Counted from the first letter of the stretch, positions 2 to 32,820 are shown. The stretch: DNA of 64,000 nucleotides from Escherichia coli (GCF_030013205.1 NZ_CP122648.1), one strand, 5' to 3'. The notes: generated by a model not told the origin, from the letters alone. Numbers and translations are program-made.

Positions 2-592
2 ATTGGTCTGCTGCTGGCAGGATTAGTCTACTGGGGCTGTACGGTAGTCGTCTTACACTTCGACGCCTATGGTGAACAAATGGCGGCAGCAGCATCGCTT
101 CCAAAAATTGTAGTGCAACTGTTCGGTGTAGGAGCGTTATGGATTGCCTGCGTGATTGGCTATCTGGCCTGCTTTGCCAGTCTCAACATTTATATACAGA
201 GCTTCGCCCGCCTGGTCTGGTCGCAGGCGCAACATAATCCTGACCACTACCTGGCACGCCTCTCTTCTCGTCATATCCCGAATAATGCCCTCAATGCGGT
301 GCTCGGCTGCTGCGTGGTGAGCACGTTGGTGATTCATGCTTTAGAGATCAATCTGGACGCACTTATCATCTATGCCAATGGCATCTTTATTATGATTTAT
401 CTGTTATGCATGCTGGCAGGCTGTAAATTATTGCAAGGACGTTATCGACTACTGGCGGTGGCTGGCGGGCTGTTATGCGTTCTGTTACTGGCAATGGTCG
501 GCTGGAAAAGTCTCTATGCGCTGATCATGCTGGCGGGGTTATGGCTGTTTCTGCCAAAACGAAAAACGCCGGAAAATGGCATAACCACATAA
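2..592 (+). CDS. yjeH: YjeH-family amino-acid exporter, C-terminal part (5' end lies outside window)
   Basis: Open frame from window edge with no stops; hydrophobic multi-TM sequence; position opposite fxsA and before aspA as in E. coli. Confidence 0.8.
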   Translation: MGLLLAGLVYWGCTVVVLHFDAYGEQMAAAASLPKIVVQLFGVGALWIACVIGYLACFASLNIYIQSFARLVWSQAQHNPDHYLARLSSRHIPNNALNAVLGCCVVSTLVIHALEINLDALIIYANGIFIMIYLLCMLAGCKLLQGRYRLLAVAGGLLCVLLLAMVGWKSLYALIMLAGLWLFLPKRKTPENGITT

Positions 593-607
593 TCCGGCGT
601 TTCGGCA

Positions 608-1084
608 TTAATCCTGGCGATCGTCTTTATGATCAAGGCGGTCGCGGTCATCATCCTTTCGCTGGTACTCACCATCAAAAGTATTACCGCCACCGGTCCC
701 GGCGCTAAAACCGCCGCCAGGCATACGGGAAAAACGCAAATGCGGCATCAACTTCACTGTCAGATGCTTTTGCACCGGCGGTAATAAAAGCAGAAGACCG
801 AGGAAGTCGGTGAAAAAGCCCGGTAATAAAAGCAGCAAACCGGCAATGATCAGCGAAACACTTTTAATCATCTCCGCCGCTGGGTTTTCACCTGCCGCCA
901 TTTTTTGCTGCATCAGCACGAAATTCTTAAAGCCCTGGTTACGTACCAGTGACATACCGATAACTGACGTGAATATAACCAGCACGAGGGTCAGCAATAC
1001 CCCCAATACATGGGCAACCTGAATAAAGATTGAAATCTCAATATAGACATAAAGGAAAATGGCAATAAAAGGTAACCAGCGCAA
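608..1084 (-). CDS. fxsA: FxsA inner-membrane protein
   Basis: 158-aa ORF, N-terminal TM helices plus acidic C-terminal tail; conserved position next to aspA. Confidence 0.88.
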   Translation of the reverse strand: MRWLPFIAIFLYVYIEISIFIQVAHVLGVLLTLVLVIFTSVIGMSLVRNQGFKNFVLMQQKMAAGENPAAEMIKSVSLIIAGLLLLLPGFFTDFLGLLLLLPPVQKHLTVKLMPHLRFSRMPGGGFSAGTGGGNTFDGEYQRKDDDRDRLDHKDDRQD

Positions 1085-1420
1085 AGGTTTCTCCTGTAAT
1101 AGCAGCCGGTTAAACCCGGCTACCTGAATGGGTTGCGAATCGCGTTCAGCTTATATTGTGGTCATTAGCAAAATTTCAAGATGTTTGCGCAACTATTTTT
1201 GGTAGTAATCCCAAAGCGGTGATCTATTTCACAAATTAATAATTAAGGGGTAAAAACCGACACTTAAAGTGATCCAGATTACGGTAGAAATCCTCAAGCA
1301 GCATATGATCTCGGGTATTCGGTCGATGCAGGGGATAATCGTCGGTCGAAAAACATTCGAAACCACATATATTCTGTGTGTTTAAAGCAAATCATTGGCA
1401 GCTTGAAAAAGAAGGTTCAC

Positions 1421-2857
1421 ATGTCAAACAACATTCGTATCGAAGAAGATCTGTTGGGTACCAGGGAAGTTCCAGCTGATGCCTACTATGGTGTTCACAC
1501 TCTGAGAGCGATTGAAAACTTCTATATCAGCAACAACAAAATCAGTGATATTCCTGAATTTGTTCGCGGTATGGTAATGGTTAAAAAAGCCGCAGCTATG
1601 GCAAACAAAGAGCTGCAAACCATTCCTAAAAGTGTAGCGAATGCCATCATTGCCGCATGTGATGAAGTCCTGAACAACGGAAAATGCATGGATCAGTTCC
1701 CGGTAGACGTCTACCAGGGCGGCGCAGGTACTTCCGTAAACATGAACACCAACGAAGTGCTGGCCAATATCGGTCTGGAACTGATGGGTCACCAGAAAGG
1801 TGAATATCAGTACCTGAACCCGAACGACCATGTTAACAAATGTCAGTCCACTAACGACGCCTACCCGACCGGTTTCCGTATCGCAGTTTACTCTTCCCTG
1901 ATTAAGCTGGTAGATGCGATTAACCAACTGCGTGAAGGCTTTGAACGTAAAGCTGTCGAATTCCAGGACATCCTGAAAATGGGTCGTACCCAGCTGCAGG
2001 ACGCAGTACCGATGACCCTCGGTCAGGAATTCCGCGCTTTCAGCATCCTGCTGAAAGAAGAAGTGAAAAATATCCAACGTACCGCTGAACTGCTGCTGGA
2101 AGTTAACCTTGGCGCAACAGCAATCGGTACTGGTCTGAACACGCCGAAAGAGTACTCTCCGCTGGCAGTGAAAAAACTGGCTGAAGTCACTGGCTTCCCA
2201 TGCGTACCGGCTGAAGACCTGATCGAAGCGACCTCTGACTGCGGCGCTTATGTAATGGTTCACGGCGCGCTGAAACGCCTGGCTGTGAAGATGTCCAAAA
2301 TCTGTAACGACCTGCGCTTGCTCTCTTCTGGTCCACGTGCCGGCCTGAACGAGATCAACCTGCCGGAACTGCAGGCGGGCTCTTCCATCATGCCAGCTAA
2401 AGTAAACCCGGTTGTTCCGGAAGTGGTTAACCAGGTATGCTTCAAAGTCATCGGTAACGACACCACTGTTACCATGGCAGCAGAAGCAGGTCAGCTGCAG
2501 TTGAACGTTATGGAGCCGGTCATTGGCCAGGCTATGTTCGAATCCGTTCACATTCTGACCAACGCTTGCTACAACCTGCTGGAAAAATGCATTAACGGCA
2601 TCACTGCTAACAAAGAAGTGTGCGAAGGTTACGTTTACAACTCTATCGGTATCGTTACTTACCTGAACCCGTTCATCGGTCACCACAACGGTGACATCGT
2701 GGGTAAAATCTGTGCCGAAACCGGTAAGAGTGTACGTGAAGTCGTTCTGGAACGCGGTCTGTTGACTGAAGCGGAACTTGACGATATTTTCTCCGTACAG
2801 AATCTGATGCACCCGGCTTACAAAGCAAAACGCTATACTGATGAAAGCGAACAGTAA
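1421..2857 (+). CDS. aspA: aspartate ammonia-lyase
   Basis: 478 aa from ATG at 1421 ([13 protein letters not shown]...), fumarase/aspartase family; track ORF begins 15 codons upstream. Confidence 0.97.
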
Positions 2858-2878
2858 TCGTACAGGGTAGTACAAATA

Positions 2879-2910
2879 AAAAAGGCACGTCAGATGACGT
2901 GCCTTTTTTC
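2879..2910 (+). terminator. rho-independent terminator after aspA
   Basis: GC hairpin ggcacgtc/gacgtgcc followed by T6. Confidence 0.6.
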
Positions 2911-2974
2911 TTGTGAGCAGTAACTTAAAAATAACAATCTAATATCAACTTGTTAAAAAACAAGGAAGGCTAAT

Positions 2975-4276
2975 ATGCTAGTTGTAGAACTCATCATAGT
3001 TTTGCTGGCGATCTTCTTGGGCGCCAGATTGGGGGGAATAGGTATTGGTTTTGCAGGCGGATTGGGGGTGCTGGTTCTTGCCGCTATTGGCGTTAAACCC
3101 GGTAACATCCCGTTCGATGTCATTTCCATTATCATGGCGGTTATCGCCGCTATTTCTGCCATGCAGGTTGCTGGCGGTCTGGACTATCTGGTTCATCAGA
3201 CAGAAAAGCTGCTGCGCCGTAACCCGAAATACATCACGATCCTCGCACCGATCGTGACCTATTTCCTGACTATCTTTGCTGGTACTGGCAACATCTCTCT
3301 GGCGACACTGCCAGTTATCGCTGAAGTTGCGAAGGAACAAGGCGTTAAACCTTGCCGTCCGCTGTCTACTGCAGTGGTATCCGCGCAGATTGCGATCACC
3401 GCATCGCCAATCTCAGCGGCAGTGGTTTACATGTCTTCCGTAATGGAAGGTCATGGCATCAGCTACCTCCATCTGCTCTCCGTGGTCATCCCGTCCACCC
3501 TGCTGGCGGTTCTGGTGATGTCCTTCCTGGTCACTATGCTGTTCAACTCCAAACTCTCTGACGATCCGATTTATCGCAAGCGTCTGGAAGAAGGCCTGGT
3601 TGAACTGCGCGGTGAAAAGCAGATTGAAATCAAATCCGGTGCAAAAACGTCCGTCTGGCTGTTCCTGCTGGGCGTAGTTGGCGTTGTTATCTATGCAATC
3701 ATCAACAGCCCAAGCATGGGTCTGGTTGAAAAACCGCTGATGAACACCACCAACGCAATCCTGATCATCATGCTCAGCGTTGCAACTCTGACCACCGTTA
3801 TCTGTAAAGTCGATACCGACAACATCCTCAACTCCAGCACCTTCAAAGCAGGTATGAGCGCCTGTATTTGTATCCTGGGTGTTGCATGGCTGGGCGATAC
3901 TTTCGTTTCCAACAACATCGACTGGATCAAAGATACCGCTGGTGAAGTGATTCAGGGTCATCCGTGGCTGCTGGCCGTCATCTTCTTCTTTGCTTCTGCT
4001 CTGCTGTACTCTCAGGCTGCAACCGCAAAAGCACTGATGCCGATGGCTCTGGCACTGAACGTTTCTCCGCTGACCGCTGTTGCTTCTTTCGCTGCGGTGT
4101 CTGGTCTGTTCATTCTGCCGACCTACCCGACGCTGGTTGCTGCGGTACAGATGGATGACACGGGTACTACCCGTATCGGTAAATTCGTCTTCAACCATCC
4201 GTTCTTCATCCCGGGTACTCTGGGTGTTGCCCTTGCCGTTTGCTTCGGCTTCGTGCTGGGTAGCTTCATGCTGTAA
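2975..4276 (+). CDS. dcuA: anaerobic C4-dicarboxylate transporter DcuA
   Basis: 433-aa polytopic membrane protein, paralogous to the DcuB ORF at 52105. Confidence 0.95.
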   Translation: MLVVELIIVLLAIFLGARLGGIGIGFAGGLGVLVLAAIGVKPGNIPFDVISIIMAVIAAISAMQVAGGLDYLVHQTEKLLRRNPKYITILAPIVTYFLTIFAGTGNISLATLPVIAEVAKEQGVKPCRPLSTAVVSAQIAITASPISAAVVYMSSVMEGHGISYLHLLSVVIPSTLLAVLVMSFLVTMLFNSKLSDDPIYRKRLEEGLVELRGEKQIEIKSGAKTSVWLFLLGVVGVVIYAIINSPSMGLVEKPLMNTTNAILIIMLSVATLTTVICKVDTDNILNSSTFKAGMSACICILGVAWLGDTFVSNNIDWIKDTAGEVIQGHPWLLAVIFFFASALLYSQAATAKALMPMALALNVSPLTAVASFAAVSGLFILPTYPTLVAAVQMDDTGTTRIGKFVFNHPFFIPGTLGVALAVCFGFVLGSFML

Positions 4277-4285
4277 TGACCAATC

Positions 4286-4311
4286 GCGGGGCTTCAGGCC
4301 CCGCTTTCTTT
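4286..4311 (+). terminator. rho-independent terminator after dcuA
   Basis: hairpin gcggggc-ttcag-gccccgc followed by T-rich tract. Confidence 0.55.
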
Positions 4312-4390
4312 CCCGCCGACTAACATCCTTCCCCCGTCCGTTGTATAGTGACCTCTCTCTTGCGGTTCCATCTGTTCTTGCGAGGTGTTT

Positions 4391-4729
4391 ATGCTTGATG
4401 AAAAAAGTTCGAATACCGCGTCTGTCGTGGTGCTATGTACGGCACCGGATGAAGCGACAGCCCAGGATTTAGCCGCCAAAGTGCTGGCGGAAAAACTGGC
4501 GGCCTGCGCGACCTTGATCCCCGGCGCTACCTCTCTCTATTACTGGGAAGGTAAGCTGGAGCAAGAATACGAAGTGCAGATGATTTTAAAAACTACCGTA
4601 TCTCACCAGCAGGCACTGCTGGAATGCCTGAAGTCTCATCATCCATATCAAACCCCGGAACTTCTGGTTTTACCTGTTACACACGGAGACACAGATTACC
4701 TCTCATGGCTCAACGCATCTTTACGCTGA
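4391..4729 (+). CDS. cutA: divalent-cation tolerance protein CutA
   Basis: 112 aa from ATG 4391 ([14 protein letters not shown]...), SD gcgaggtg upstream; 3' end overlaps dsbD start. Confidence 0.9.
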
Positions 4730-6402
4730 TCCTGCTACTTTGCAGCACTTCCGTTTTTGCCGGATTATTCGACGCGCCGGGACGTTCACAATTTGTCCCC
4801 GCGGATCAAGCCTTTGCTTTTGATTTTCAGCAAAACCAACATGACCTGAATCTGACCTGGCAGATCAAAGACGGTTACTACCTCTACCGTAAACAGATCC
4901 GCATTACGCCGGAACACGCGAAAATTGCCGACGTGCAGCTGCCGCAAGGCGTCTGGCATGAAGATGAGTTTTACGGCAAAAGCGAGATTTACCGCGATCG
5001 GCTGACGCTTCCCGTCACCATCAACCAGGCGAGTGCGGGAGCGACGTTAACTATCACCTACCAGGGCTGTGCTGATGCCGGTTTCTGTTATCCGCCAGAA
5101 ACCAAAACCGTTCCGTTAAGCGAAGTGGTCGCCAACAACGCAGCGTCACAGCCTGTGTCTGTTCCGCAGCAAGAGCAGCCCACCGCGCAATTGCCCTTTT
5201 CCGCGCTCTGGGCGTTGTTGATCGGTATTGGTATCGCCTTTACGCCATGCGTGCTGCCAATGTACCCACTGATTTCTGGTATCGTGCTGGGCGGTAAACA
5301 GCGGCTCTCCACTGCCAGAGCATTGTTGCTGACCTTTATTTATGTGCAGGGGATGGCGCTGACTTACACGGCACTGGGTCTGGTGGTTGCCGCCGCAGGG
5401 TTACAGTTCCAGGCGGCGCTACAGCACCCATACGTGCTCATTGGCCTCGCTATCGTCTTTACCTTGCTGGCGATGTCAATGTTTGGCTTGTTTACTCTGC
5501 AACTCCCCTCTTCGCTGCAAACACGTCTCACGCTGATGAGCAATCGCCAACAGGGCGGCTCACCTGGCGGTGTGTTTGTTATGGGGGCGATTGCCGGACT
5601 GATCTGTTCACCATGCACCACCGCACCGCTTAGCGCGATTCTGCTGTATATCGCCCAAAGCGGGAACATGTGGCTGGGGGGCGGCACGCTTTATCTCTAT
5701 GCGTTGGGCATGGGCCTGCCGCTGATGCTAATTACCGTCTTTGGTAACCGCTTGCTGCCGAAAAGCGGCCCGTGGATGGAACAAGTCAAAACCGCGTTTG
5801 GTTTTGTGATCCTCGCACTGCCGGTCTTCCTGCTGGAGCGAGTGATTGGTGATATATGGGGATTACGCTTGTGGTCGGCGCTTGGTGTCGCATTCTTTGG
5901 CTGGGCCTTTATCACCAGCCTACAGGCCAAACGCGGCTGGATGCGCGTGGTGCAAATAATCCTGCTGGCAGCGGCATTGGTTAGCGTGCGCCCACTTCAG
6001 GATTGGGCATTTGGTGCGACGCATACCGCGCAAACTCAGACGCATCTCAACTTTACACAAATCAAAACGGTAGATGAGTTAAATCAGGCGCTCGTTGAAG
6101 CCAAAGGCAAACCAGTGATGTTAGATCTCTATGCCGACTGGTGCGTCGCCTGTAAAGAGTTTGAGAAATACACCTTCAGCGACCCGCAGGTGCAAAAAGC
6201 GTTAGCAGACACGGTATTACTTCAGGCCAACGTCACTGCCAACGACGCACAAGATGTGGCGCTGTTAAAGCATCTTAATGTCCTTGGCCTACCGACAATT
6301 CTCTTTTTTGACGGACAAGGCCAGGAGCATCCACAAGCACGCGTCACGGGCTTTATGGATGCTGAAACCTTCAGCGCACATTTGCGCGATCGCCAACCGT
6401 GA
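4705..6402 (+). CDS. dsbD: thiol:disulfide interchange protein DsbD
   Basis: 565 aa from ATG 4705 ([13 protein letters not shown]...); CxxC thioredoxin-like C-terminal domain (WCVACK). Confidence 0.95.
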
Positions 6403-6438
6403 ACGACACTTGCAGTGGGAAAGACGGAGGAAAATAGC

Positions 6439-7014
6439 GTGCAACGTGAAGATGTACTGGGAGAAGCCCTGAAATTATTAGAATTACAAGGGATTGCCAA
6501 CACCACGCTGGAGATGGTTGCTGAACGTGTGGATTATCCACTGGACGAGCTACGCCGCTTCTGGCCAGACAAAGAGGCAATCCTCTACGATGCGCTGCGT
6601 TATCTTAGCCAACAGATAGATGTCTGGCGTCGTCAGCTGATGCTGGACGAAACGCAAACCGCCGAACAAAAGTTGCTGGCACGTTATCAGGCGTTATCGG
6701 AGTGCGTTAAAAACAACCGCTATCCGGGCTGTCTGTTTATCGCTGCCTGTACGTTTTATCCCGATCCTGGCCACCCTATTCATCAACTGGCCGATCAGCA
6801 AAAAAGCGCGGCCTACGATTTCACCCACGAACTGTTAACCACACTGGAAGTTGACGATCCGGCGATGGTAGCAAAGCAGATGGAACTGGTGCTGGAAGGC
6901 TGTTTAAGCCGAATGCTGGTGAATCGTAGCCAGGCGGATGTCGACACCGCACATCGGCTGGCGGAAGATATCCTGCGCTTCGCCCGCTGCCGCCAGGGTG
7001 GTGCTTTGACCTGA
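6439..7014 (+). CDS. yjdC: TetR-family transcriptional regulator YjdC
   Basis: 191 aa from GTG 6439 with SD ggagg; N-terminal HTH. Confidence 0.85.
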
Positions 7015-7120
7015 CAGAAACACAGAAAAGAAGCGATTTGCCGCAATCTTAAGCAGTTGAATCGCTTTTACTGAAATTAGGTTGACGAGATGTGCAGATT
7101 ACGGTTTAATGCGCCCCGTT

Positions 7121-7196
7121 GCCCGGATAGCTCAGTCGGTAGAGCAGGGGATTGAAAATCCCCGTGTCCTTGGTTCGATTCCGAGTCCGGGCACCA
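7121..7196 (+). tRNA. pheU: tRNA-Phe (anticodon GAA)
   Basis: 76-nt cloverleaf sequence GCCCGGATAGCTCAGTCGGTAGAGCAGGGGATTGAAAATCCCC...CCA; anticodon loop TTGAAAA. Confidence 0.95.
7174..7196 (+). repeat. attL core (3' end of pheU), duplicated at 38277-38298
   Basis: 23 nt ttcgattccgagtccgggcacca; 22 of these recur (one G fewer) at 38277. Confidence 0.75.
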
Positions 7197-7208
7197 AATT
7201 CATATCAA

Positions 7209-7236
7209 CGGACCTCCACGGAGGTCCGTTTTTCGT
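7209..7236 (+). terminator. terminator hairpin downstream of pheU
   Basis: ggacctcc-acg-gaggtcc followed by T5. Confidence 0.6.
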
Positions 7237-7393
7237 TTCAGAACACCATGATTTAAGTGTTCTTCCTCCAAATCAATTCTACCGAACTCAACCAAATTCT
7301 CCCCACATCAACCTCATTGTGTGGGTATAATTGCGGGTATACCCCAGTTCGACAGAATTTATACCCTCTTTAACGCATTCAGAAGGCTGAACT

Positions 7394-8656
7394 ATGGCAC
7401 TGACTGACGCAAAAATCCGGGCTGCAAAGCCCACTGACAAGGCTTATAAACTCACTGACGGGGCCGGCATGTTCCTGCTGGTTCATCCTAATGGTTCCCG
7501 TTACTGGCGTCTCCGCTATCGTATTCTGGGTAAGGAGAAGACTCTGGCACTTGGTGTGTATCCAGAAGTTTCTCTCTCCGAAGCTCGTACAAAACGGGAT
7601 GAGGCCCGAAAACTGATTTCAGAGGGGATTGACCCTTGCGAACAGAAAAGAGCTAAAAAAGTTGTCCCTGATTTACAGCTCTCTTTTGAACATATTGCAC
7701 GACGCTGGCATGCCAGTAATAAACAATGGGCACAATCACACAGCGATAAAGTACTCAAAAGCCTCGAGACACACGTTTTCCCCTTTATCGGCAACCGGGA
7801 TATCACAACACTCAGTACCCCGGACCTGCTTATCCCTGTTCGTGCTGCAGAAGCTAAACAAATTTATGAAATCGCCAGTCGTCTGCAGCAAAGAATATCT
7901 GCTGTAATGCGTTATGCCGTACAGTCTGGCATCATCAGATATAACCCGGCTCTGGATATGGCTGGTGCATTGACCACGGTAAAACGCCAGCATCGCCCTG
8001 CACTGGATCTTTCACGCCTGCCTGAACTTCTGTCGCGTATTGACGGTTATAAAGGCCAGCCTGTCACCCGACTGGCAGTTATGCTGAATTTACTGGTTTT
8101 TATTCGTTCCAGTGAACTCAGATACGCCCGCTGGTCTGAAATTGATATTGACAATGCCATGTGGACTATTCCAGCCGAACGCGAACCTCTGCCTGGCGTA
8201 AAATTCTCACACCGGGGCTCCAAGATGCGAACACCACATCTTGTGCCACTCAGCAAACAGGCTGTAGCCATACTGGCAGAACTACAGACATGGGCTGGTG
8301 AAAATGGTCTGATCTTTACGGGAGCACATGACCCGCATAAACCAATCAGTGAAAATACTGTAAATAAAGCCCTGAGGGTGATGGGGTATGACACAACCCA
8401 GGATGTCTGTGGCCATGGATTCCGTGCGATGGCATGTAGTGCGCTGATCGAATCAGGTTTGTGGTCCCGCGATGCTGTTGAACGTCAGATGAGCCATCAG
8501 GAACGTAACGGTGTACGCGCTGCGTATATCCATAAAGCCGAACATCTGGAAGAACGCCGGCTGATGCTACAGTGGTGGGCAGATTTTCTGAATGCGAACA
8601 GAGAGAAATGTATCAGTCCGTTTGATTATGCAAAGATCAACAATCCATTAAAATAG
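7394..8656 (+). CDS. int: P4-type tyrosine integrase
   Basis: 420 aa directly downstream of tRNA-Phe; N-terminal MALTDAKIRAAKP... and C-terminal HGFRAMA...RAAY tyrosine-recombinase signature. Confidence 0.9.
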   Translation: MALTDAKIRAAKPTDKAYKLTDGAGMFLLVHPNGSRYWRLRYRILGKEKTLALGVYPEVSLSEARTKRDEARKLISEGIDPCEQKRAKKVVPDLQLSFEHIARRWHASNKQWAQSHSDKVLKSLETHVFPFIGNRDITTLSTPDLLIPVRAAEAKQIYEIASRLQQRISAVMRYAVQSGIIRYNPALDMAGALTTVKRQHRPALDLSRLPELLSRIDGYKGQPVTRLAVMLNLLVFIRSSELRYARWSEIDIDNAMWTIPAEREPLPGVKFSHRGSKMRTPHLVPLSKQAVAILAELQTWAGENGLIFTGAHDPHKPISENTVNKALRVMGYDTTQDVCGHGFRAMACSALIESGLWSRDAVERQMSHQERNGVRAAYIHKAEHLEERRLMLQWWADFLNANREKCISPFDYAKINNPLK

Positions 8657-8819
8657 TAATAATCCCCGGGCAAAATGCCCGGGGTACTTTGAATGACTAT
8701 TTTTCTTTGGGCGTGATGAAGAAGATTGATGGTAAGACAAATTACTCCCGACTCTTACGTATTTTCATGGAAAGAAATCCCCCAATATCATCCATCGGGA
8801 TCGAGTAATAACCTGTAAT

Positions 8820-9005
8820 ATGCTGCAGGTTCCGACAGCGGCGGCAAATATGCAGCACATATTGTGCTCACTGATCGGCACCTGCCGTCTGAACAATGCG
8901 GAGTCAGAAAAATTGCTGCATTACGTCACAGATCATATGCAGGACTGGTCGGCAAACCGGGTACGCGATCTGTTGCCCTGGAAAGTTGATCTGACCTCTC
9001 AGTAA
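8820..9005 (+). pseudogene. IS66-family transposase C-terminal fragment
   Basis: 61-aa ORF ...LIGTCRLN...LLPWKVDL matches the C-terminus of the larger IS66-like fragment at 9730-10251. Confidence 0.5.
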
Positions 9006-9069
9006 ATATCAATACGGTTCTGGCGAGCCGCTTACAATCGAACTGGGATACAGGGAGATAAAACAGACG

Positions 9070-9429
9070 ATGCAACTGAGCAGGCTGACGCTGAGAAGTA
9101 AAAAGCCGGAGCTTGTGGAGCAAGAGCTGTGGGGTGTCTTACTGGCTTATAATCTGGTGAGATATCAGATGATTAAAATGGCGGAACATCTGAAAGGTTA
9201 CTGGCCGAATCAACTGAGTTTCTCAGAATCATGCGGAATGGTGATGAGAATGCTGATGACATTGCAGGGCGCTTCACCGGGACATATACCGGAGCTGATG
9301 CGCGATCTTGCAAGTATGGGACAACTTGTGAAATTACCGACAATAAGGGAAAGGGCCTTCCCGAGAGTGGTAAAGGAGAGGCCCTGGAAATACCCCACAG
9401 CCCCGAAAAAGAGCCAGTCAGTTGCTTAA
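9070..9429 (+). pseudogene. DDE transposase C-terminal fragment (IS4-like)
   Basis: 119-aa truncated ORF resembling a DDE transposase C-terminal region; no N-terminal catalytic part. Confidence 0.4.
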
Positions 9430-9753
9430 CTGACTGGCATTAGGCCGCCGGGGGCGTTTTTTTACCACCGGGACTTCGGACATAACGGTGTTTTCAGTAA
9501 GTACGACAGGTACTGTGGAGGCACTCCCGTAAAGACGGGCATCAAGTTCCCGCTCCGACATACCTGCGGGCAGAGGCCATGAAAGGCCAGCTTTTCGGAA
9601 GCGCACGAACATACCACAAACTGTTGATTTTGGTACGCCCAGGCGACGTCCGGCCACAATCCGTGGTAAATGTTCTTCAAAGTGAAGACGTAAAGCTTCA
9701 GTGATCCAGGTCCGGTATTCCATACGATAGTGTCCATTAAAAATGATGGACAT
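9418..9753 (-). pseudogene. transposase N-terminal HTH fragment (family uncertain)
   Basis: 111-aa ORF with HTH-like segment (RRLGVPKSTV), embedded among IS debris. Confidence 0.3.
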
Positions 9754-10251
9754 TATTTTTGTGGAGCCGGAGGAAACACACCAGACTGTTTAAATGAGCC
9801 GGTTACCGAAATACGCGGGTTGCCGGTGTCTGAACGCCTGGCGGTCAGGCAAATGCAGAGTAAACCGCTACTGACTTCCCTGTATAAGCTGATGCAGGAG
9901 AAAGAACACACATTATCGAAAAAATGCCGTCTGAGAGATGCGTTCCGGTATATCCGGAAGCACTGGGTTGCGTTGTGCAACTTCTGTGATGATGGTCTGG
10001 CGGAGGCGGATAATAATGCCGCGGAAAGAGCGCTTCGTGCAGTCTGTCTCGGAAAGAAAAACTTTATGTTCTTCGGCAGCGATCACGGCGGCGAGCGAGG
10101 AGCACTGTTGTACGGGCTGATCGGCACCTGCCGACTGAACGGTATCGATCCGGAAGCGTATCTGCGCCATATCCTGAGCGTACTGCCGGAATGGCCTTCC
10201 AACCGAGTTGACGAACTCCTGCCATGGAACGTAGTACTCACCAATAAATAA
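9730..10251 (+). pseudogene. IS66-family transposase (TnpC) C-terminal fragment
   Basis: 173-aa ORF ending ...GIDPEAYLRHILSVLPEWPSNRVDELLPWN; gtaagcg-type end motif about 40 bp downstream. Confidence 0.6.
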
Positions 10252-10385
10252 GCGTCAATACGGCACTCCGTTAACGCTTACGTTTAAGTCATAAAGCCAT
10301 GCAGAACGCTCACCTCCCAAGATCTTGGTTTTTATAAGGTGTAATGATAATGTAAGCTAATGTTTCACATGCCAAAGGAAACACC

Positions 10386-11714
10386 ATGAGCCACAGGGAA
10401 TTGTTCAGCGAATTTCTTGAAAATTTGAATCTTGACCTCAAACAGGCAAAAAAGATCAGCTATCACTATCGAAAAATAACCAAGTCATTAAATCTTGCGT
10501 TCAGAGGAACGAGTTCCCGGGTAGCAAACCGCTTGAAAGTGGGGTCAGTAGGCAGACATACCGCAATAAAAGGCATATCCGATCTGGATATGCTTTATAT
10601 TATGCCCCCCAATCAGTATGAATATTATAACCGTAAGGATAATGGTCAGTCTGCATTGCTTACAGATGTCAGAAACATTCTGGCGGAAGAATATCCTGAC
10701 CAGACTGTGAAAAAGGACAGACTGGTTGTTCAGATCATCTTTAAAAACTTTTATGTCGAGGTTCAACCTGTATTCAGACAGGATGATGACAGCTTTAAAT
10801 TCCCTGAAAGCTATAATGGAGGAGCATGGCGCATTACAAAACCTCTTCACGAAAAGGCGGCCATGACCGCATTTTCGCGAGATAAATCCAATAATCTGCG
10901 CAAGCTGTGTAAAATGATCAGAGCCTGGAAGAACCTGCATGGCGTCAATATGGGTGGCTTACTGATAGACACACTAGCGTATCGCTTTCTTTCATCAACA
11001 TCAGATTATGACAATACCGGAAATGGCAGCCTGGGAGCCCTCGCCAGAGACTTTTTTGAATATCTGTCAAATGAGGAGAGAAAGGAAAGGTATCTCGCGT
11101 TAGGCAGTAATCAGCATGTACGTGTTAAATCTCCCTGGTTTGGCCGGGCAGCGAAACACGCGTATGAATTATGTTGTGATGCCTTAGACGCTGAGGGGGC
11201 TGCCAGTGAAAATGACCGCTGGCGCAAAGTGTTCGGACGAGCCTTCCCCAGACGTAAAGTGGGTATTATGGAAGCCCGTCTTGGTCTGGAATCGCATGCG
11301 GCAGATGCTGTTCCCTGGACCGATACCGAAGAGTTTATAGAGGATAAATATCCGGTGGATATCAGGTACTCACTCAACCTTGACTGTACCGTAACCCAGG
11401 ATGGTTTCCCTCCCAGAAGCCTGAGGGAGATGCTTACCAGAAGATTCCGCCTCTCCGCTCGAAAATCTCTCCTTTTCCGGGCAGACTTGACAGAAATGGA
11501 GGCAGAGGAACCCTACACCGTTATGTGGAAGGTACTGAACGTGGGTGACGAAGCACGCAGAAGAAATATGATCCGGGGACAAATCGTTTCGGACGGCGGC
11601 TACTGTACGAAGAAAGAAACTACCGACTTCCGCGGAGATCACATGGTAGAATGCTATGTGATAAAAAATGAGGTTGTGGTTGCCCGGGCCCAGATTGAAG
11701 TTCCCATAAGCTGA
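10386..11714 (+). CDS. Pol-beta-fold nucleotidyltransferase with C-terminal extension (SMODS/CD-NTase-like plus AGS-C-like region)
   Basis: ATG with SD aaagga; GS-x10-SDLD nucleotidyltransferase signature (VGSVGRHTAIKGISDLD); about 150-aa C-terminal extension; AT-rich gene. Confidence 0.6.
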   Translation: MSHRELFSEFLENLNLDLKQAKKISYHYRKITKSLNLAFRGTSSRVANRLKVGSVGRHTAIKGISDLDMLYIMPPNQYEYYNRKDNGQSALLTDVRNILAEEYPDQTVKKDRLVVQIIFKNFYVEVQPVFRQDDDSFKFPESYNGGAWRITKPLHEKAAMTAFSRDKSNNLRKLCKMIRAWKNLHGVNMGGLLIDTLAYRFLSSTSDYDNTGNGSLGALARDFFEYLSNEERKERYLALGSNQHVRVKSPWFGRAAKHAYELCCDALDAEGAASENDRWRKVFGRAFPRRKVGIMEARLGLESHAADAVPWTDTEEFIEDKYPVDIRYSLNLDCTVTQDGFPPRSLREMLTRRFRLSARKSLLFRADLTEMEAEEPYTVMWKVLNVGDEARRRNMIRGQIVSDGGYCTKKETTDFRGDHMVECYVIKNEVVVARAQIEVPIS

Positions 11715-11721
11715 GGTTTTT

Positions 11722-12297
11722 ATGACGCAATCAGAGATGCTGAAATTAATCGCCCGACATGGTTATAACGTTGGATTTGGCGCTAAGAAAAACTTTGCCA
11801 CCTATGATCTGATTTGTAAGGCATCCGGTTGGATTAGCTTTATTTCTCTTGCTGTCGGTGTGTTCGCCCTTTTTATTCCTGAGCTGGCCACAAACGTCAT
11901 TTCCGCGATATTAATTATATTTGGTGTTGCTACAATGTACATTCAGTTTTATGACTCGGAAAAGCAGAGTTATGAAAGTGCGGGGATTGAGCAGACCAAA
12001 ATTTTTAATGAACTTGAAGTCATCTACCGCAACGTAAAAAGCGATGCAAACTTTGACTATCAGCGTACACAACAATCCATCGACGCTATCATGTCCCGGT
12101 TTTACGGCACGGTCATCAGCAAACAGATCTTCGGAAGTAACTGGTACGCACATTATAAATTTTACTGTGAATTTGAAAAAGCATGGGTTGAAGAAGAGCT
12201 GAACCTGACACTGAAGGACAAAATCCCGCTTTCGCTCTGCTTTCTCGCCGGTCTGGCGATCATTTTTACTATAGCTGTCATCTGGAAAACGCCCTGA
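11722..12297 (+). CDS. small multi-TM membrane protein (SLATT-like predicted effector)
   Basis: 191 aa, starts 8 nt after the nucleotidyltransferase stop with SD gagg; two adjacent N-proximal hydrophobic helices and one C-terminal helix. Confidence 0.55.
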   Translation: MTQSEMLKLIARHGYNVGFGAKKNFATYDLICKASGWISFISLAVGVFALFIPELATNVISAILIIFGVATMYIQFYDSEKQSYESAGIEQTKIFNELEVIYRNVKSDANFDYQRTQQSIDAIMSRFYGTVISKQIFGSNWYAHYKFYCEFEKAWVEEELNLTLKDKIPLSLCFLAGLAIIFTIAVIWKTP

Positions 12298-12848
12298 TGC
12301 TGCAGCCAATGAAAAATTCAGCAAGCTGACTGTCAAATATGCGATGTATAGCCGGTATCACCATCCAGTGTACGTTCTATAAGGGGGGCGCTTGGAAAAC
12401 GGGTAGAGTCAAGATGTGGCGCGGTAATTTTACAGGTCAGGCATATCTGTTGCCGCCTCTTTCGATTGGCGGTGCCTTACTGTCCTGACCATAAATCCTG
12501 TTTCCACACCCCGCTCATCGAAGCGGACATGCGCTTCTAACACATCCGGCTCTCGGACAGAATCATGCCTTCGCCCACGGAAACCTCTGCGGGAGCTTCG
12601 GTGCATATTTTCATGGAAGGGGATCACCCAATAACTTCCATCGAGATCGGGTCATAACGGCCAATCCGTGATCGAATAGAGCGGAATACGCACTCTGACG
12701 AACTGCTTACATTTAAACTAATTACAAACTATATAAATCCGCCTTGCTCATTCACAGGGTAGATATATTCTTACTTTTAATTTTATGTGTAATTAACTGA
12801 TGACGAAAAATGAATTGAACTGTAAATGCATATCTAAGTTTTTCATTC

Positions 12849-13574
12849 TTATGATGTACATAATACCTTAAAATTATCAACTAGCTGAGCATTAACCTCC
12901 ATCTGACTAATCCCCCATAATGCGGCTAACTGTTTCTCTGCAATCCCACTATCCCATGGCATTAGTGGGTCATTACGAAACTTAGCAAATGGCCCATCTG
13001 TTTCTGTAAGAATGCGTGATTTGGGTATTTTCAAAACTAAGGCCTTACCCTTTATTGTATCGAGCATAGCAGGCCCCACTGAGAACCAGCATCCTAAATC
13101 AATTGCCCTTTCAAGCTGCTTAGGTGTTCCAGTGAACCAATGCAATATTGCCACCCCATCGATATTTTCAATCTCATCAAGCACCGCTGATGCACTTCCC
13201 CGACTATGGATAGTCATAATCTTGCCACCAGCCCGATTTACACTGTTGAGAATGTGTCGGAACACTTTCAATTGAATATCCCAATGTTCTTTAAATCCCT
13301 GTCCACCATCAAGCCCTATTTCCCCTACATACTTAGTTTCCGAAAGCAATGAATCAAACAGGTCTAACTCATGCGATCTTTGATGCGCGATTTGAGGATG
13401 TAGCCCAAGAGCAGTTCGGATTCGTTGACTTTCTTTAGCCAATAAAGAAGTACCATGCCATGCTTTAGGTGTTGTTGTCACCGACAGAATATAAGTCCCT
13501 CGACGTTTACTTTCTTCAGCCACGAGGTCTGGCCGAGGATATAAGTCTAGATGACAGTGCATATCGATGCTCAT
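12849..13574 (-). CDS. qatD: TatD-family metal-dependent DNase (QatD)
   Basis: 241 aa; N-terminal HxH metal motif (MSIDMHCHLDLYP); start ATG overlaps qatC stop (ATGA). Confidence 0.8.
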   Translation of the reverse strand: MSIDMHCHLDLYPRPDLVAEESKRRGTYILSVTTTPKAWHGTSLLAKESQRIRTALGLHPQIAHQRSHELDLFDSLLSETKYVGEIGLDGGQGFKEHWDIQLKVFRHILNSVNRAGGKIMTIHSRGSASAVLDEIENIDGVAILHWFTGTPKQLERAIDLGCWFSVGPAMLDTIKGKALVLKIPKSRILTETDGPFAKFRNDPLMPWDSGIAEKQLAALWGISQMEVNAQLVDNFKVLCTS

Positions 13575-29432: not shown

Positions 29433-29646
29433 TATAGTGGTTAATGACCTGCGAAAAGGCAGTTGATTCTCTTCATCATGCAGAACGGAATTGCACACAA
29501 CGGACTGATGCTTCTCTGGCGGATGAGAGAGGGGAAGCATTTATGTCCGAGAAAAACCACTTTATCTGACCATGCTGTTTTGTACCTGCCGGTATCCACA
29601 TTTGTGGGTACCGGCTTTTTTATTCACCCTCTGTAAGGAAAAGCTG

Positions 29647-32493
29647 ATGAAACGACATCTGAACACCAGCTACAGGCTGGTATGGAATCACATTACGGGC
29701 ACCCTGGTGGTGGCTTCCGAACTGGCCCGCTCACGGGGGAAACGTACTGGCGTGGCGCTGGCGCTGTCTCTTGCCACCGCCACTTCAGTCCCGGCCCTGG
29801 CTGCTGACAGTGTTGTACAGGCAGGGGAAATCGTGAACGGCGGGACACTGGTAAATCATGACAACCAGATTGTCTTCGGTACGACCAACGGAATGACCAT
29901 CAGTACCGGGCTGGAGTATGGGCCGGATAACGAGGCCAATACCGGCGGGCAATGGGTACAGGATGGCGGCACAGCCAGTAATACCACCATCAGCAACGGC
30001 GGGCTCCAGTTTGTAGGTGCCGGGGGAAAGGCTACAGACACAATAATCAATGAAGGAGGCGGACAAAGTCTGAAGGGACTGGCACTGAACACCACGCTGA
30101 ATGGTGGCGAGCAGTGGATGCATGAAGGTGCGATAGCCACAGGAACCGTCATTAATGATAAGGGCTGGCAGGTCGTCAAACCCGGCGCAGTGGCAACAGA
30201 CACCGTTGTGAATACCGGCGCAGAAGGAGGACCGGATGCAGAAAATGGTGATACCGGGCAGTTTGTTCGCGGAAATGCCGTACGTACCACTATCAATAAA
30301 AATGGTCGTCAGATTGTGGTAGCCACCGGAGTGGCAAACACCACGGTGGTTTATGCCGGCGGCGACCAGACGGTACATGGCCACGCACTGGATACCACGC
30401 TGAATGGCGGTAACCAGTATGTGCACAACGGCGGTACAACGTCTGACACTGTTGTGAACAGTGACGGCTGGCAGATTATCAAGGAAGGTGGTCTGGCGGA
30501 TTTCACCACCGTTAACCAGAAAGGCAAACTGCAGGTGAACGCCGGTGGTACAGCCACGAATGTCACCCTGAAGCAGGGCGGCGCACTGGTCACCAGTACT
30601 GCTGCAACGGTTCTTGGCAGCAACCGTCTGGGGAATTTCACGGTGGAAAACGGTAAGGCTGACGGCGTTGTTCTGGAGTCCGGCGGTCGCCTGGATGTAC
30701 TGGAGGGCCATTCAGCGCAGAATACCCTGGTGGATGACGGCGGTACCCTGGCAGTGTCTGCCGGTGGTAAGGCAACAGATGTCACCATGACATCCGGTGG
30801 TGCCCTGATTGCAGACAGTGGTGCCACTGTTGAGGGGACCAATGCCAGCGGTAAGTTCAGTATTGATGGCATATCCGGTCAGGCCAGCGGCCTGCTGCTG
30901 GAAAATGGCGGCAGCTTTACGGTTAATGCCGGGGGACAGGCCGGTAACACCACTGTCGGATATCGTGGAACACTGACGCTGGCTGCCGGGGGAAGTCTGA
31001 GTGGCAGAACACAGCTCAGTAAAGGTGCCAGCATGGTACTGAATGGCGATGTGGTCAGTACCGGCGATATTGTTAACGCAGGGGAGATTCGCTTTGATAA
31101 TCAGACAACACCGGATGCCGCGCTGAGCCGTGCTGTTGCAAAAAGTAACTCCCCGGTAACGTTCCATAAACTGACCACCAGTAACCTCACCGGCCAGGGC
31201 GGCACCATCAATATGCGTGTCAGCCTTGATGGCAGTAATGCCTCAGACCAGCTGGTAATTAATGGTGGTCAGGCAACCGGCAAAACCTGGCTTGCGTTCA
31301 CAAATGTCGGAAACAGCAATCTCGGGGTGGCAACCTCCGGACAGGGTATCAGGGTTGTGGATGCACAGAATGGCGCCACCACAGAAGAAGGTGCGTTTGC
31401 CCTGAGTCGCCCGCTTCAGGCCGGCGCCTTTAACTACACCCTGAACCGTGACAGCGATGAAGACTGGTACCTGCGCAGTGAAAATACTTATCGTGCTGAA
31501 GTCCCCCTGTATGCCTCCATGCTGACACAGGCAATGGACTATGACCGGATTCTGGCAGGCTCCCGCAGCCATCAGACCGGTGTAAGCGGTGAAAATAACA
31601 GCGTCCGTCTCAGCATTCAGGGCGGTCATCTCGGGCACGATAACAACGGTGGTATTGCCCGTGGGGCCACGCCGGAAAGCAGCGGCAGCTATGGCTTCGT
31701 CCGTCTGGAGGGTGACCTGCTCAGAACAGAGGTTGCCGGTATGTCTCTGACGACAGGGGTGTATGGTGCTGCAGGCCATTCTTCCGTTGAAGTTAAGGAT
31801 GATGACGGCTCCCGCGCCGGCACGGTCCGGGATGATGCCGGCAGCCTGGGCGGATACCTGAATCTGGTACACACATCCTCCGGCCTGTGGGCTGACATTG
31901 TGGCACAGGGAACCCGCCACAGCATGAAAGCGTCATCGGACAATAACGACTTCCGCGCCCGGGGCTGGGGCTGGCTGGGCTCACTGGAAACCGGTCTGCC
32001 CTTCAGTATCACTGACAATCTGATGCTGGAGCCACAACTGCAGTACACCTGGCAGGGACTTTCCCTGGATGACGGCCAGGATAACGCCGGTTATGTGAAG
32101 TTCGGGCATGGCAGTGCACAACATGTGCGTGCCGGCTTCCGTCTGGGCAGCCACAACGATATGACCTTTGGTGAAGGCACCTCATCCCGTGACACCCTGC
32201 GCGACAGTGCAAAACACAGTGTGCGTGAACTGCCGGTGAACTGGTGGGTACAGCCTTCTGTTATCCGCACCTTCAGTTCCCGGGGTGACATGAGCATGGG
32301 GACAGCCGCTGCCGGCAGTAACATGACGTTATCACCGTCACAGAATGGCACGTCACTGGACCTGCAGGCCGGACTGGAAGCCCGTGTCCGGGAAAATATC
32401 ACCCTGGGGGTACAGGCCGGTTATGCCCACAGCGTCAGCGGCAGCAGTGCTGAAGGTTATAACGGTCAGGCCACGCTGAATGTGACTTTCTGA
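29647..32493 (+). CDS. flu: antigen 43 self-associating autotransporter
   Basis: 949 aa from ATG 29647 (MKRHLNTSYRLVWNH...); long Gly/Thr-rich beta-helix passenger and C-terminal beta-barrel. Confidence 0.9.
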   Translation: MKRHLNTSYRLVWNHITGTLVVASELARSRGKRTGVALALSLATATSVPALAADSVVQAGEIVNGGTLVNHDNQIVFGTTNGMTISTGLEYGPDNEANTGGQWVQDGGTASNTTISNGGLQFVGAGGKATDTIINEGGGQSLKGLALNTTLNGGEQWMHEGAIATGTVINDKGWQVVKPGAVATDTVVNTGAEGGPDAENGDTGQFVRGNAVRTTINKNGRQIVVATGVANTTVVYAGGDQTVHGHALDTTLNGGNQYVHNGGTTSDTVVNSDGWQIIKEGGLADFTTVNQKGKLQVNAGGTATNVTLKQGGALVTSTAATVLGSNRLGNFTVENGKADGVVLESGGRLDVLEGHSAQNTLVDDGGTLAVSAGGKATDVTMTSGGALIADSGATVEGTNASGKFSIDGISGQASGLLLENGGSFTVNAGGQAGNTTVGYRGTLTLAAGGSLSGRTQLSKGASMVLNGDVVSTGDIVNAGEIRFDNQTTPDAALSRAVAKSNSPVTFHKLTTSNLTGQGGTINMRVSLDGSNASDQLVINGGQATGKTWLAFTNVGNSNLGVATSGQGIRVVDAQNGATTEEGAFALSRPLQAGAFNYTLNRDSDEDWYLRSENTYRAEVPLYASMLTQAMDYDRILAGSRSHQTGVSGENNSVRLSIQGGHLGHDNNGGIARGATPESSGSYGFVRLEGDLLRTEVAGMSLTTGVYGAAGHSSVEVKDDDGSRAGTVRDDAGSLGGYLNLVHTSSGLWADIVAQGTRHSMKASSDNNDFRARGWGWLGSLETGLPFSITDNLMLEPQLQYTWQGLSLDDGQDNAGYVKFGHGSAQHVRAGFRLGSHNDMTFGEGTSSRDTLRDSAKHSVRELPVNWWVQPSVIRTFSSRGDMSMGTAAAGSNMTLSPSQNGTSLDLQAGLEARVRENITLGVQAGYAHSVSGSSAEGYNGQATLNVTF

Positions 32494-32820
32494 TAATCAG
32501 GTCACTCCCCTTCAGGCCCCGGCCATCATGACCGGGGCTTTTTACTTTCAGGGAGCAACAGATATGCCTGGTTGTACATCACGTTTATTGCCCGAAGGCC
32601 CTTTTGCTGCCAAATGGCATCTGAATCGATCACAGTTTGACCGGTTATTACCCGATCCCGATGGGGTTATTGGGTGATCTCCTTCCATAAAAATACGCAG
32701 CTCGCCAGTGAAGGGCTTCTCAGACAATAAACGTCATTCATTTCATCGGTCAGGCCGCGTCTTCTCCGGGAGACGCGGCTTTTTCATTTATACCGCTAAC
32801 TCATTCATAAGGAGCAAATC

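Follow-up and report, generated by a model that had tools for sequence, protein, structure and literature searches.

Four abutting insertion sequence remnants between the integrase and the defence genes of an Escherichia coli tRNA-Phe island

Between positions 8825 and 10281 of the window, the 64,000-nucleotide stretch of Escherichia coli DNA (NZ_CP122648.1) analysed here, the sequence is insertion sequence (IS) debris throughout: four fragments, together 1.46 kb, abut one another with no foreign DNA between them. The block is very probably an inert stack of IS remnants that arose by transposition of one element into another and was afterwards reduced by deletion. The anatomy of the junctions points to nested insertions followed by few deletions, possibly by one. 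As such the block is an ordinary IS scar built from known elements, and its mobile-element debris is already annotated in RefSeq. The initial annotation had described a cluster of at least three transposase fragments with no intact IS; the absence of an intact element holds, but the fragments number four, the one on the minus strand (fragment C) having been missed.

The island and the four fragments

The cluster lies in an island whose attachment site is a tRNA-Phe gene (7121–7196, plus strand; found by ARAGORN and by the Rfam tRNA model at 68.3 bits). The gene is assigned to pheU from its position 3' of dsbD-dicD/yjdC, and positions 5061–7200 are 99.5% identical to a dsbD-dicD-tRNA-Phe locus in another genome (L010). 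An apparently intact P4-type tyrosine integrase of 420 amino acids follows at 7394–8656 (plus strand; Pfam Arm-DNA-bind_3, Phage_int_M and Phage_integrase), and is described in RefSeq as a tyrosine-type recombinase/integrase. With cadC at 38915 as the marker of the right chromosomal flank, the island measures ∼31 kb; a search of the rest of the window for attR, as an exact repeat of at least 14 nt of the tRNA-Phe 3' end, found none.

The integrase is separated from the debris by a non-IS spacer (8657–8824, no strand assigned) that holds the terminator-like hairpin of the integrase gene (8664–8684), backbone common to related islands up to ∼8748, where the match to the related island in L010 stops, and a repeated motif of ∼55 bp (8758–8816) with further copies at 12606–12658 and 32640–32697. 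The right edge of this spacer, 8824|8825, is the point at which the first IS fragment is truncated. On the other side, a 104-bp spacer (10282–10385, plus strand) runs from the last terminal repeat of the debris to the start of a CBASS-type cyclase and is conserved with the cargo. The cyclase (10386–11714; SMODS and AGS_C domains) and a SLATT_6 membrane effector (11722–12297), both on the plus strand and identified by Pfam and NCBIfam models, lie outside the debris and provide its context, and a Qat system is located beyond SLATT on the opposite strand (qatD/qatC and a QatA-like gene in RefSeq). The earlier placement of the cluster at the integrase-proximal end of the island, directly 5' of the defence cargo, is thus borne out.

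The fragments were mapped on intact reference elements from public plasmids and genomes, delimited by their terminal repeats, and the IS names follow the RefSeq/PGAP products of the nearest intact copies. Fragment A (8825–9035, plus strand) comprises the last 211 bp of an ISCro1-like element of the IS66 family, with 90.0% identity to positions 2495–2704 of a 2,704-bp copy (L006) and one indel. The indel frameshifts the end of tnpC, of which ∼60 last codons are kept up to a stop at 9003–9005, while the right terminal repeat (...CCGCTTAC, ending at 9035) is intact. The open reading frame at 8820–9005 matches Pfam DDE_Tnp_IS66_C (E 1.3e-8), and PGAP annotates a frameshifted, N-terminally incomplete transposase. 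Fragment B (9036–9442, plus strand) is the last 407 bp of IS4, 99.0% identical to positions 1020–1426 of the 1,426-bp element (L004 and L005). It encodes the C-terminus of the transposase, beginning within the ...IELGYREIKQ... region, and its right terminal repeat (...CTGGCATTA, ending at 9442) is intact. The translated stretch of 130 amino acids at 9037–9429 matches positions 290–332 of the 332 in NCBIfam transpos_IS4_1, and PGAP calls an IS4 family transposase lacking its N-terminus.

Fragment C (9443–9806) is on the minus strand and represents the first 364 bp of an ISCro1-like IS66-family element, corresponding to positions 364–1 of a 2,699-bp copy (L003) at 89.9% identity. Its left terminal repeat is intact (GTAACCGGCTCATTTAAAC..., outermost base 9806), and tnpA runs from a start codon at 9753 through codon ∼103 before it is interrupted by the IS4 end. 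The minus-strand frame 9418–9753 matches NCBIfam IS66_access_TnpA over positions 1–90 of 190 (E 5.8e-29), and is annotated by PGAP as a TnpA lacking its C-terminus; the NCBIfam assignment to IS66 TnpA rules out an identification of this frame as the N-terminus of an IS21-type IstA. Fragment D (9807–10281, plus strand) is the last 475 bp of an ISEc43-like IS66-family element, 95.6% identical to positions 2067–2541 of a 2,541-bp copy (L011) and 85% identical to ISEc23. What it keeps of tnpC is the final ∼148 codons, and its right terminal repeat (...AACGCTTAC, ending at 10281) is intact. Its open reading frame, 9730–10251, matches Pfam DDE_Tnp_IS66 at positions 194–283 of 284 (1.2e-24), an IS66 C-terminal element (8.7e-17) and NCBIfam transpos_IS66 at positions 262–385 of 387; PGAP describes an IS66 family transposase without an N-terminus. 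Retained in fragment D is the ...NNAAER... stretch of TnpC, the putative site of the catalytic glutamate in this family; everything upstream of the fragment is gone.

Protein profiles and the DNA map, with matches much stronger than chance would give, together confirm that the cluster includes two independent IS66-family 3' ends and one IS4 3' end, as initially proposed, and show that the two IS66-family ends come from different members of the family, ISCro1-like in A and ISEc43-like in D. The two share only a conserved IS66 C-terminal stretch of 24–33 bp in an internal repeat search. The earlier view that each piece lacks the catalytic N-terminal part is correct in that no active transposase is possible, but fragment C is itself an N-terminal part, that of the accessory gene tnpA. 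RefSeq/PGAP records exactly four incomplete pseudogenes (transposase domain protein, IS4 family transposase, IS66 TnpA and IS66 family transposase), and the translated stretches of A, B, C and D (61, 130, 111 and 173 amino acids, respectively) match their family models only at N- or C-terminal ends. Three open frames, at 9070–9429 (119 codons), 9418–9753 (111 codons) and 9730–10251 (173 codons), are pieces of transposase and accessory genes, and should not be annotated as genes.

A single intact IS is ruled out, as each fragment maps to 8–29% of its reference element. IS66-type terminal repeats (GTAAGCG/GTAACCG start) are present in A (ending at 9035), D (...ACGCTTAC, 10281) and, on the minus strand, C (GTAACCGGCTC..., 9806), and match those of the intact elements in L003, L006, L011 and L012, with one end per fragment. 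The full tnpA-tnpB-tnpC set with a DDE TnpC is absent from A, C and D, tnpB being missing altogether. A complete IS4 has 1,426 bp bounded by TAATGCC... and ...GGCATTA and encodes a DDE transposase of ∼440 amino acids, whereas fragment B has the right repeat only. No matching inverted ends enclosing a complete transposase gene occur in 8657–10385, no inverted repeats of at least 14 nt were detected in the debris, and no further copies or intact IS of these types were found in the 64-kb window.

Junctions between the fragments and their complete counterparts

Each of the three internal joints brings the terminus of one element against the interior of the next. The right end of A (9035) meets position 1020 of IS4; the right end of IS4 (9442) meets position 364 of the ISCro1-like element C, within tnpA; and the left end of C (9806) meets position 2067 of the ISEc43-like element D, within tnpC. 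There is no non-IS base at any of these joints. An intact terminus set against an internal position of the next element is the signature of insertion of one IS into another. A and C might be thought to be the two ends of a single ISCro1-like element split by IS4, but they are in opposite orientations and the right end of A abuts an internal IS4 position.

Complete counterparts of the joints are found in other replicons, and 8-bp target-site duplications flank intact IS66 relatives in L003, L011, L012, L004 and L002. A Shigella dysenteriae plasmid (L005) carries a complete 1,426-bp IS4 at the identical site in an ISCro1-like tnpA, flanked by a 12-bp duplication (AGGCCGCCGGGG), and in this plasmid the equivalent of fragment C is contiguous with IS4 at 96.8% identity. 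The same IS4/ISCro1-like junction is present, at 96.5–96.8%, on large plasmids of S. sonnei, S. dysenteriae, S. boydii, S. flexneri and E. coli. IS4 has strong target site specificity. The site shared by the window and Shigella could consequently be convergent rather than a product of common descent, a reading suggested by the identity of C to intact ISCro1 copies, which is only ∼90%, and to the Shigella copy, which is ∼94%. As for the joint between A and IS4, another plasmid (L004) contains an intact ISEc23 within IS4, bordered by an 8-bp duplication (CGATTCTC).

The joint between C and D has two counterparts. A chromosomal locus (L012) harbours an intact ISCro1 inverted in an ISEc43-like tnpC, with an 8-bp duplication (CGCCATTG) at reference positions 2055–2062, 12 bp away from the C|D junction of the window, and a plasmid (L003) has an intact ISCro1, likewise inverted in an ISEc43-like tnpC, with an 8-bp duplication (GATCGGCT) 158 bp upstream of the window junction. 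ISCro1-like elements thus occupy three positions within 160 bp of the ISEc43-like tnpC, inverted in every case. Given the offsets of 12 and 158 bp, the C|D junction of the window reflects either an independent insertion or the same insertion followed by a small adjacent deletion.

The main competitor to nesting is that the elements inserted independently as neighbours and that each was trimmed by its own deletion. Further separate IS insertions are seen at this spot in other strains, and the offset of the C|D junction from both duplication-bearing analogues calls in any case for at least one additional small deletion or a distinct event. Without nesting, however, four deletions would be required, three of which would have to end exactly at the outermost base of a neighbour's terminus and leave no non-IS DNA, while nesting accounts for these termini at no cost; moreover, each of the three junction types has a complete nested analogue with a target-site duplication. 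Independent insertion is therefore improbable.

Under the preferred reading, nested insertion and subsequent deletion, the ISEc43-like element D would have been present first, its right end 104 bp 5' of the CBASS cyclase. An ISCro1-like element (C) would then have entered the tnpC of D in inverse orientation, followed by IS4 (B), which entered the tnpA of C, and by a second ISCro1-like element (A), which entered the IS4 transposase gene. Finally one deletion, or a few, would have run from the island backbone shortly after the integrase gene (8824) up to position 2494 of element A, so that A, IS4 and D lost their left parts, and C its tnpB/tnpC side, all at once. A single deletion is enough because the elements are nested. 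We infer both the order of events and the single-deletion step. Searches of complete E. coli genomes with the integrase-A junction, the C|D junction and the CBASS flank returned only the same block or further-decayed variants, and the undeleted nested ancestor was absent from the genomes so searched. A fifth, unrecognised element could have cut A, as the edge of the fragment at 8824|8825 joins a 76-bp stretch.

Distribution of the scar, mobility and possible roles

At least 80% of positions 8650–10390 is present in one collinear match in 50 complete E. coli genomes and, among the matches listed, 30 of 30 cover 100% of this interval at 99.9–100% identity. The integrase-A junction is carried by ∼60 genomes. 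The presence of the cluster in complete genomes and the RefSeq pseudogene annotation show that it is not an assembly artefact. The integrase and scar occur together at pheV in three genomes (L001, O157:H16 98-3133; L013, TUM9757; L014, STEC384); in the window, and in porcine ETEC/O139:H1 genomes with a 100% match to it, the site is pheU. As the same integrase-plus-scar unit is found at both sites, the scar would be older than the spread of the island between the two tRNA-Phe genes.

The leader side of the CBASS-Qat module (window 10282–11000) is more widespread, being present in 261 E. coli genomes. In two sampled genomes lacking the cluster (L007 and L008) the module is at a different locus, and the final 218 bp of D, cut at window position 10064 by an IS3-family element, still stand ahead of its spacer. 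This persistence of the D end beside the module at another locus indicates that no part of the block is older than the D|CBASS junction. Overall, comparison of these sequences indicates that the block was not built in this genome but inherited, and that it is common to many strains and in part to plasmids.

Turnover has continued in relatives. In TUM9757, IS100 follows D and the cyclase gene carries IS1; in STEC384, C is interrupted by an IS3-family element and IS2 separates D from the cyclase. The repeated IS activity invoked in the initial annotation is supported by the extra IS100, IS1, IS2 and IS3-family insertions in or beside the cluster in other strains, but the fragments themselves are probably not separately trimmed side-by-side insertions. 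In APEC20/16 (L009) a crossover within 17 bp of identity (CTGATCGGCACCTGCCG; window 8871–8887 and 10117–10133) has generated an A/D chimera, and the cargo to the right of the D terminus is wholly different from that of the window.

An IncF plasmid from a goat STEC (L002) matches window positions 9192–10281 at 100% identity over 1,090 bp. There, an intact ISEc23-like element lies ahead of the block, and its right end is joined to IS4 at the window equivalent of 9192 (9036 in the window), so that the joint lies 156 bp deeper into IS4 than that of the window. The resulting 3.6-kb unit is located between traT and traD and flanked by an 8-bp duplication (AAACACTG). The plasmid illustrates the same route of decay independently. 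Two histories are possible: the composite moved whole, using an ISEc23-type left end and the right end of D, or a D-type element inserted and acquired the same nest, the middle of which was then lost by recombination with the nested ISEc23. The first ∼250 bp of the plasmid element are 66% identical to ISEc23 and 59% identical to ISEc43, which is compatible with recombination; no intact reference of the D lineage exists.

The plasmid raises the question of whether the block, or part of it, is still mobile as a composite with a functional IS66-family right end, that of D, mobilized in trans by ISEc23 or ISEc43 relatives. This would account for its occurrence both on a plasmid and in chromosomes, and would be in line with the perfect duplication around the ISEc23-like element, IS4', C' and D' in L002, the complete identity of window positions 9192–10281 to that plasmid, and the intact right terminal repeat of D, to the right of which four different sequences are found (in L002, L003, L009 and the window). 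The duplication is, however, equally explained by insertion of a D-type element followed by recombination of its 5' part with a nested ISEc23. In addition, the window has no correctly oriented left repeat for D or A, as the sole left end, that of C, faces the wrong way, and the 8-bp repeat GTTTAAGT was not found in the spacer; the window copy thus lacks a pair of ends. It is very unlikely that the block is still mobile.

Almost no weight can be given to the co-option of a truncated frame, such as use of the 111-amino-acid TnpA fragment (9753–9418) as a repressor of ISCro1-type elements or read-through from D driving CBASS. In its favour, the tnpA fragment has its native start codon, the left-end region upstream of it and an uninterrupted frame of 111 codons, Shigella plasmids maintain this truncated form as well, and the 3' end of D accompanies the CBASS module in other genomic settings. 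Against it, PGAP calls all four fragments pseudogenes, A is frameshifted, IS2 separates D from CBASS in STEC384, where an IS3-family element also interrupts C without apparent consequence, and no plus-strand promoter-like site was found between D and the cyclase.

No function is expected from the remnants, which encode no functional transposase and should be unable to move by themselves: none of them has both ends or a full transposase gene, the tnpC end in A is frameshifted, and Rfam and promoter scans were empty. Apart from the tRNA, no structured RNA matched an Rfam model at E ≤ 1 in 7000–13000, and a simple promoter scan of the plus strand upstream of the cyclase gave nothing convincing. 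Only passive roles can be suggested, and these are speculative: the remnants provide homology for recombination, as seen in APEC20/16, and a harmless landing pad for other IS, as in TUM9757 and STEC384. Fragment D is possibly also usable as an IS66-type right end, as in the IncF plasmid. A broader and doubtful proposal is that the right ends of A and D serve as portable homology or usable transposon ends for the exchange of defence cargo, both at the integrase-proximal end of pheV/pheU islands and between islands and IncF plasmids. The four sequence contexts to the right of D, the A/D chimera, the 1,090-bp plasmid identity with its duplication, and the three inverted ISCro1-like insertion sites are the observations behind this proposal, and targeted IS-in-IS insertion together with module swapping mediated by IS ends might be involved.

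Truncated IS beside island integrases are commonplace and of little importance alone. The four-fragment scar is of use as a marker of one island lineage across unrelated E. coli strains, exemplified by porcine ETEC/O139:H1 at pheU, and O157:H16 and others at pheV. It also places the IS events before the spread of the island, and ties the island to the IS pools of IncF and Shigella plasmids. Furthermore, it reveals that the CBASS-Qat module travels with the last ∼220–475 bp of an ISEc43-like element.

Relation to known elements

A literature search on ISCro1, ISEc43 and the IS66 family found nothing specific to this cluster. Fragment B is 99.0% identical to IS4 over 407 bp including the right terminal repeat, although it keeps only the last 29% of the element and lacks the left repeat and ∼310 transposase codons. 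Target duplications of IS4 are 11–13 bp long, and the 12-bp duplication in the Shigella plasmid is in line with this behaviour. Fragments A and C resemble the last 210 bp and the first 364 bp of ISCro1, respectively, and keep its right (...CGCTTAC) and left (GTAACCG...) repeats, but their identity of merely 88–90% indicates that they derive from relatives and not from ISCro1 proper. Both have lost tnpB and nearly all of tnpC, and they lie in opposite orientations with IS4 between them. In Citrobacter rodentium ICC168, ISCro1 itself has undergone an expansion to 24 copies (PMC3072379).

Fragment D is 95.6% identical to the intact ISEc43-family element in L011, of which it represents only the last 19%. 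With ISEc23 it has the right repeat in common, and its last ∼290 bp are ∼98% identical to that element by eye; the 5' portion of D is only ∼75% identical to ISEc23, and D is therefore assigned to the ISEc43 branch. No intact copy of the exact lineage of D was recovered.

As a whole, the block resembles the IS remnants of other E. coli genomic islands, in which truncated IS pieces likewise lie beside a tRNA-linked integrase, and it has the IS4-in-ISCro1-like junction, at 96.5–96.8% identity, in common with the IS graveyards of Shigella virulence plasmids. It differs from the latter in that the Shigella plasmid (L005) contains a complete IS4, whereas the remnants in the window have been trimmed to 1.46 kb and are fixed in a pheV/pheU defence island.

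Cargo behind the integrase at pheU and pheV

The same P4-type integrase, followed by the IS scar formed by the abutting remnants A to D, occupies two tRNA-Phe loci. It is located at pheU (dicD-tRNA-Phe) in the window (7121-8656) and in porcine ETEC/O139:H1 genomes, and at pheV (yqgA-tRNA-Phe) in E. coli O157:H16 98-3133, TUM9757, STEC384 and APEC20/16. As regards attR, no stretch of 14 nt or more within the window repeats the 3' end of the tRNA exactly. The cargo behind the integrase and scar in O157:H16 98-3133, TUM9757 and STEC384 is the same as in the window, but differs in APEC20/16 (NZ_CP127297.1). In the latter genome the integrase and the same spacer are followed by a chimeric A/D remnant (6260-6480), in which the crossover falls within a 17-bp identity, CTGATCGGCACCTGCCG. 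Past the right end of D the cargo is wholly unlike that of the window, comprising a 3.4-kb hypothetical gene, a DUF6375 protein and a radical SAM protein. The combination of a chimeric remnant with different cargo beyond D suggests that cargo was exchanged in APEC20/16 and that the break occurred at the IS66-type end.

The CBASS (SMODS/AGS_C and SLATT_6) and Qat genes are also found in a different chromosomal context in NZ_CP023834.1 and NZ_CP126944.1 (6783-14128), where the neighbours are an Orn/Lys/Arg decarboxylase, an antiporter, IS1 and an IS3-family element. In both chromosomes the module still has the final 218 bp of fragment D; the ISEc43-like right end thus moves along with the defence genes.

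IS66-family insertions and a possible plasmid composite

Intact copies of ISCro1, the element that fragments A and C resemble, lie repeatedly, in inverse orientation, within the tnpC genes of other IS66-family elements, at 2230-5629 and 7080-10302 of a chromosome (NZ_CP135712.1) and at 1168-4026 of plasmid L003. Three of the sites in ISEc43-like tnpC fall within about 160 bp (reference positions ~1909, 2055 and 2067, the last being that of the window), and one further insertion is in the tnpC of another IS66-family element. This clustering may represent a target preference; it may also be no more than ascertainment bias, as the search was made with the C|D junction.

Plasmid CP101982.1 has, at 941-4564, an intact ISEc23-like element and, directly after it, an IS4'-C'-D' block that is 100% identical to window positions 9192-10281. 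The whole unit sits between traT and traD of this IncF plasmid, flanked on both sides by the 8-bp direct repeat AAACACTG. It is either a composite that transposed whole, or the product of recombination that collapsed an earlier D-type insertion.

A repeated motif in the island

A motif of ~55 bp (CGTATTTTCATGGAAAGAAATCCCCCAATATCATCCATCGGGATCGAGTAATAAC and variants) is present in three copies in the island, 83-85% identical. The first (8758-8816) lies 3' of the integrase, while the others are 3' of the SLATT gene and 3' of a large ORF (29572-32493), at 12606-12658 and 32640-32697 (minus orientation), respectively. An Rfam scan of 7000-13000, which takes in the first two copies only, returned no match at either. 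A small ORF (12430-12627, minus) ending in HVRFDERGVETGFMVRTVRHRQSKEAATDMPDL lies downstream of the second copy, in the SLATT-qatD intergenic region, and is possibly what is left of another mobile element. Plasmid L003 carries a further copy of the motif (4981-5035) upstream of a truncated ORF, MSRSMAKQKFRITNW..., presumably the beginning of a transposase of the IS5 family (IS903 group). An IS-end remnant and a small island-specific repeat are both possible readings of the motif and, judging from it, fragment A might be bordered by a fifth remnant.
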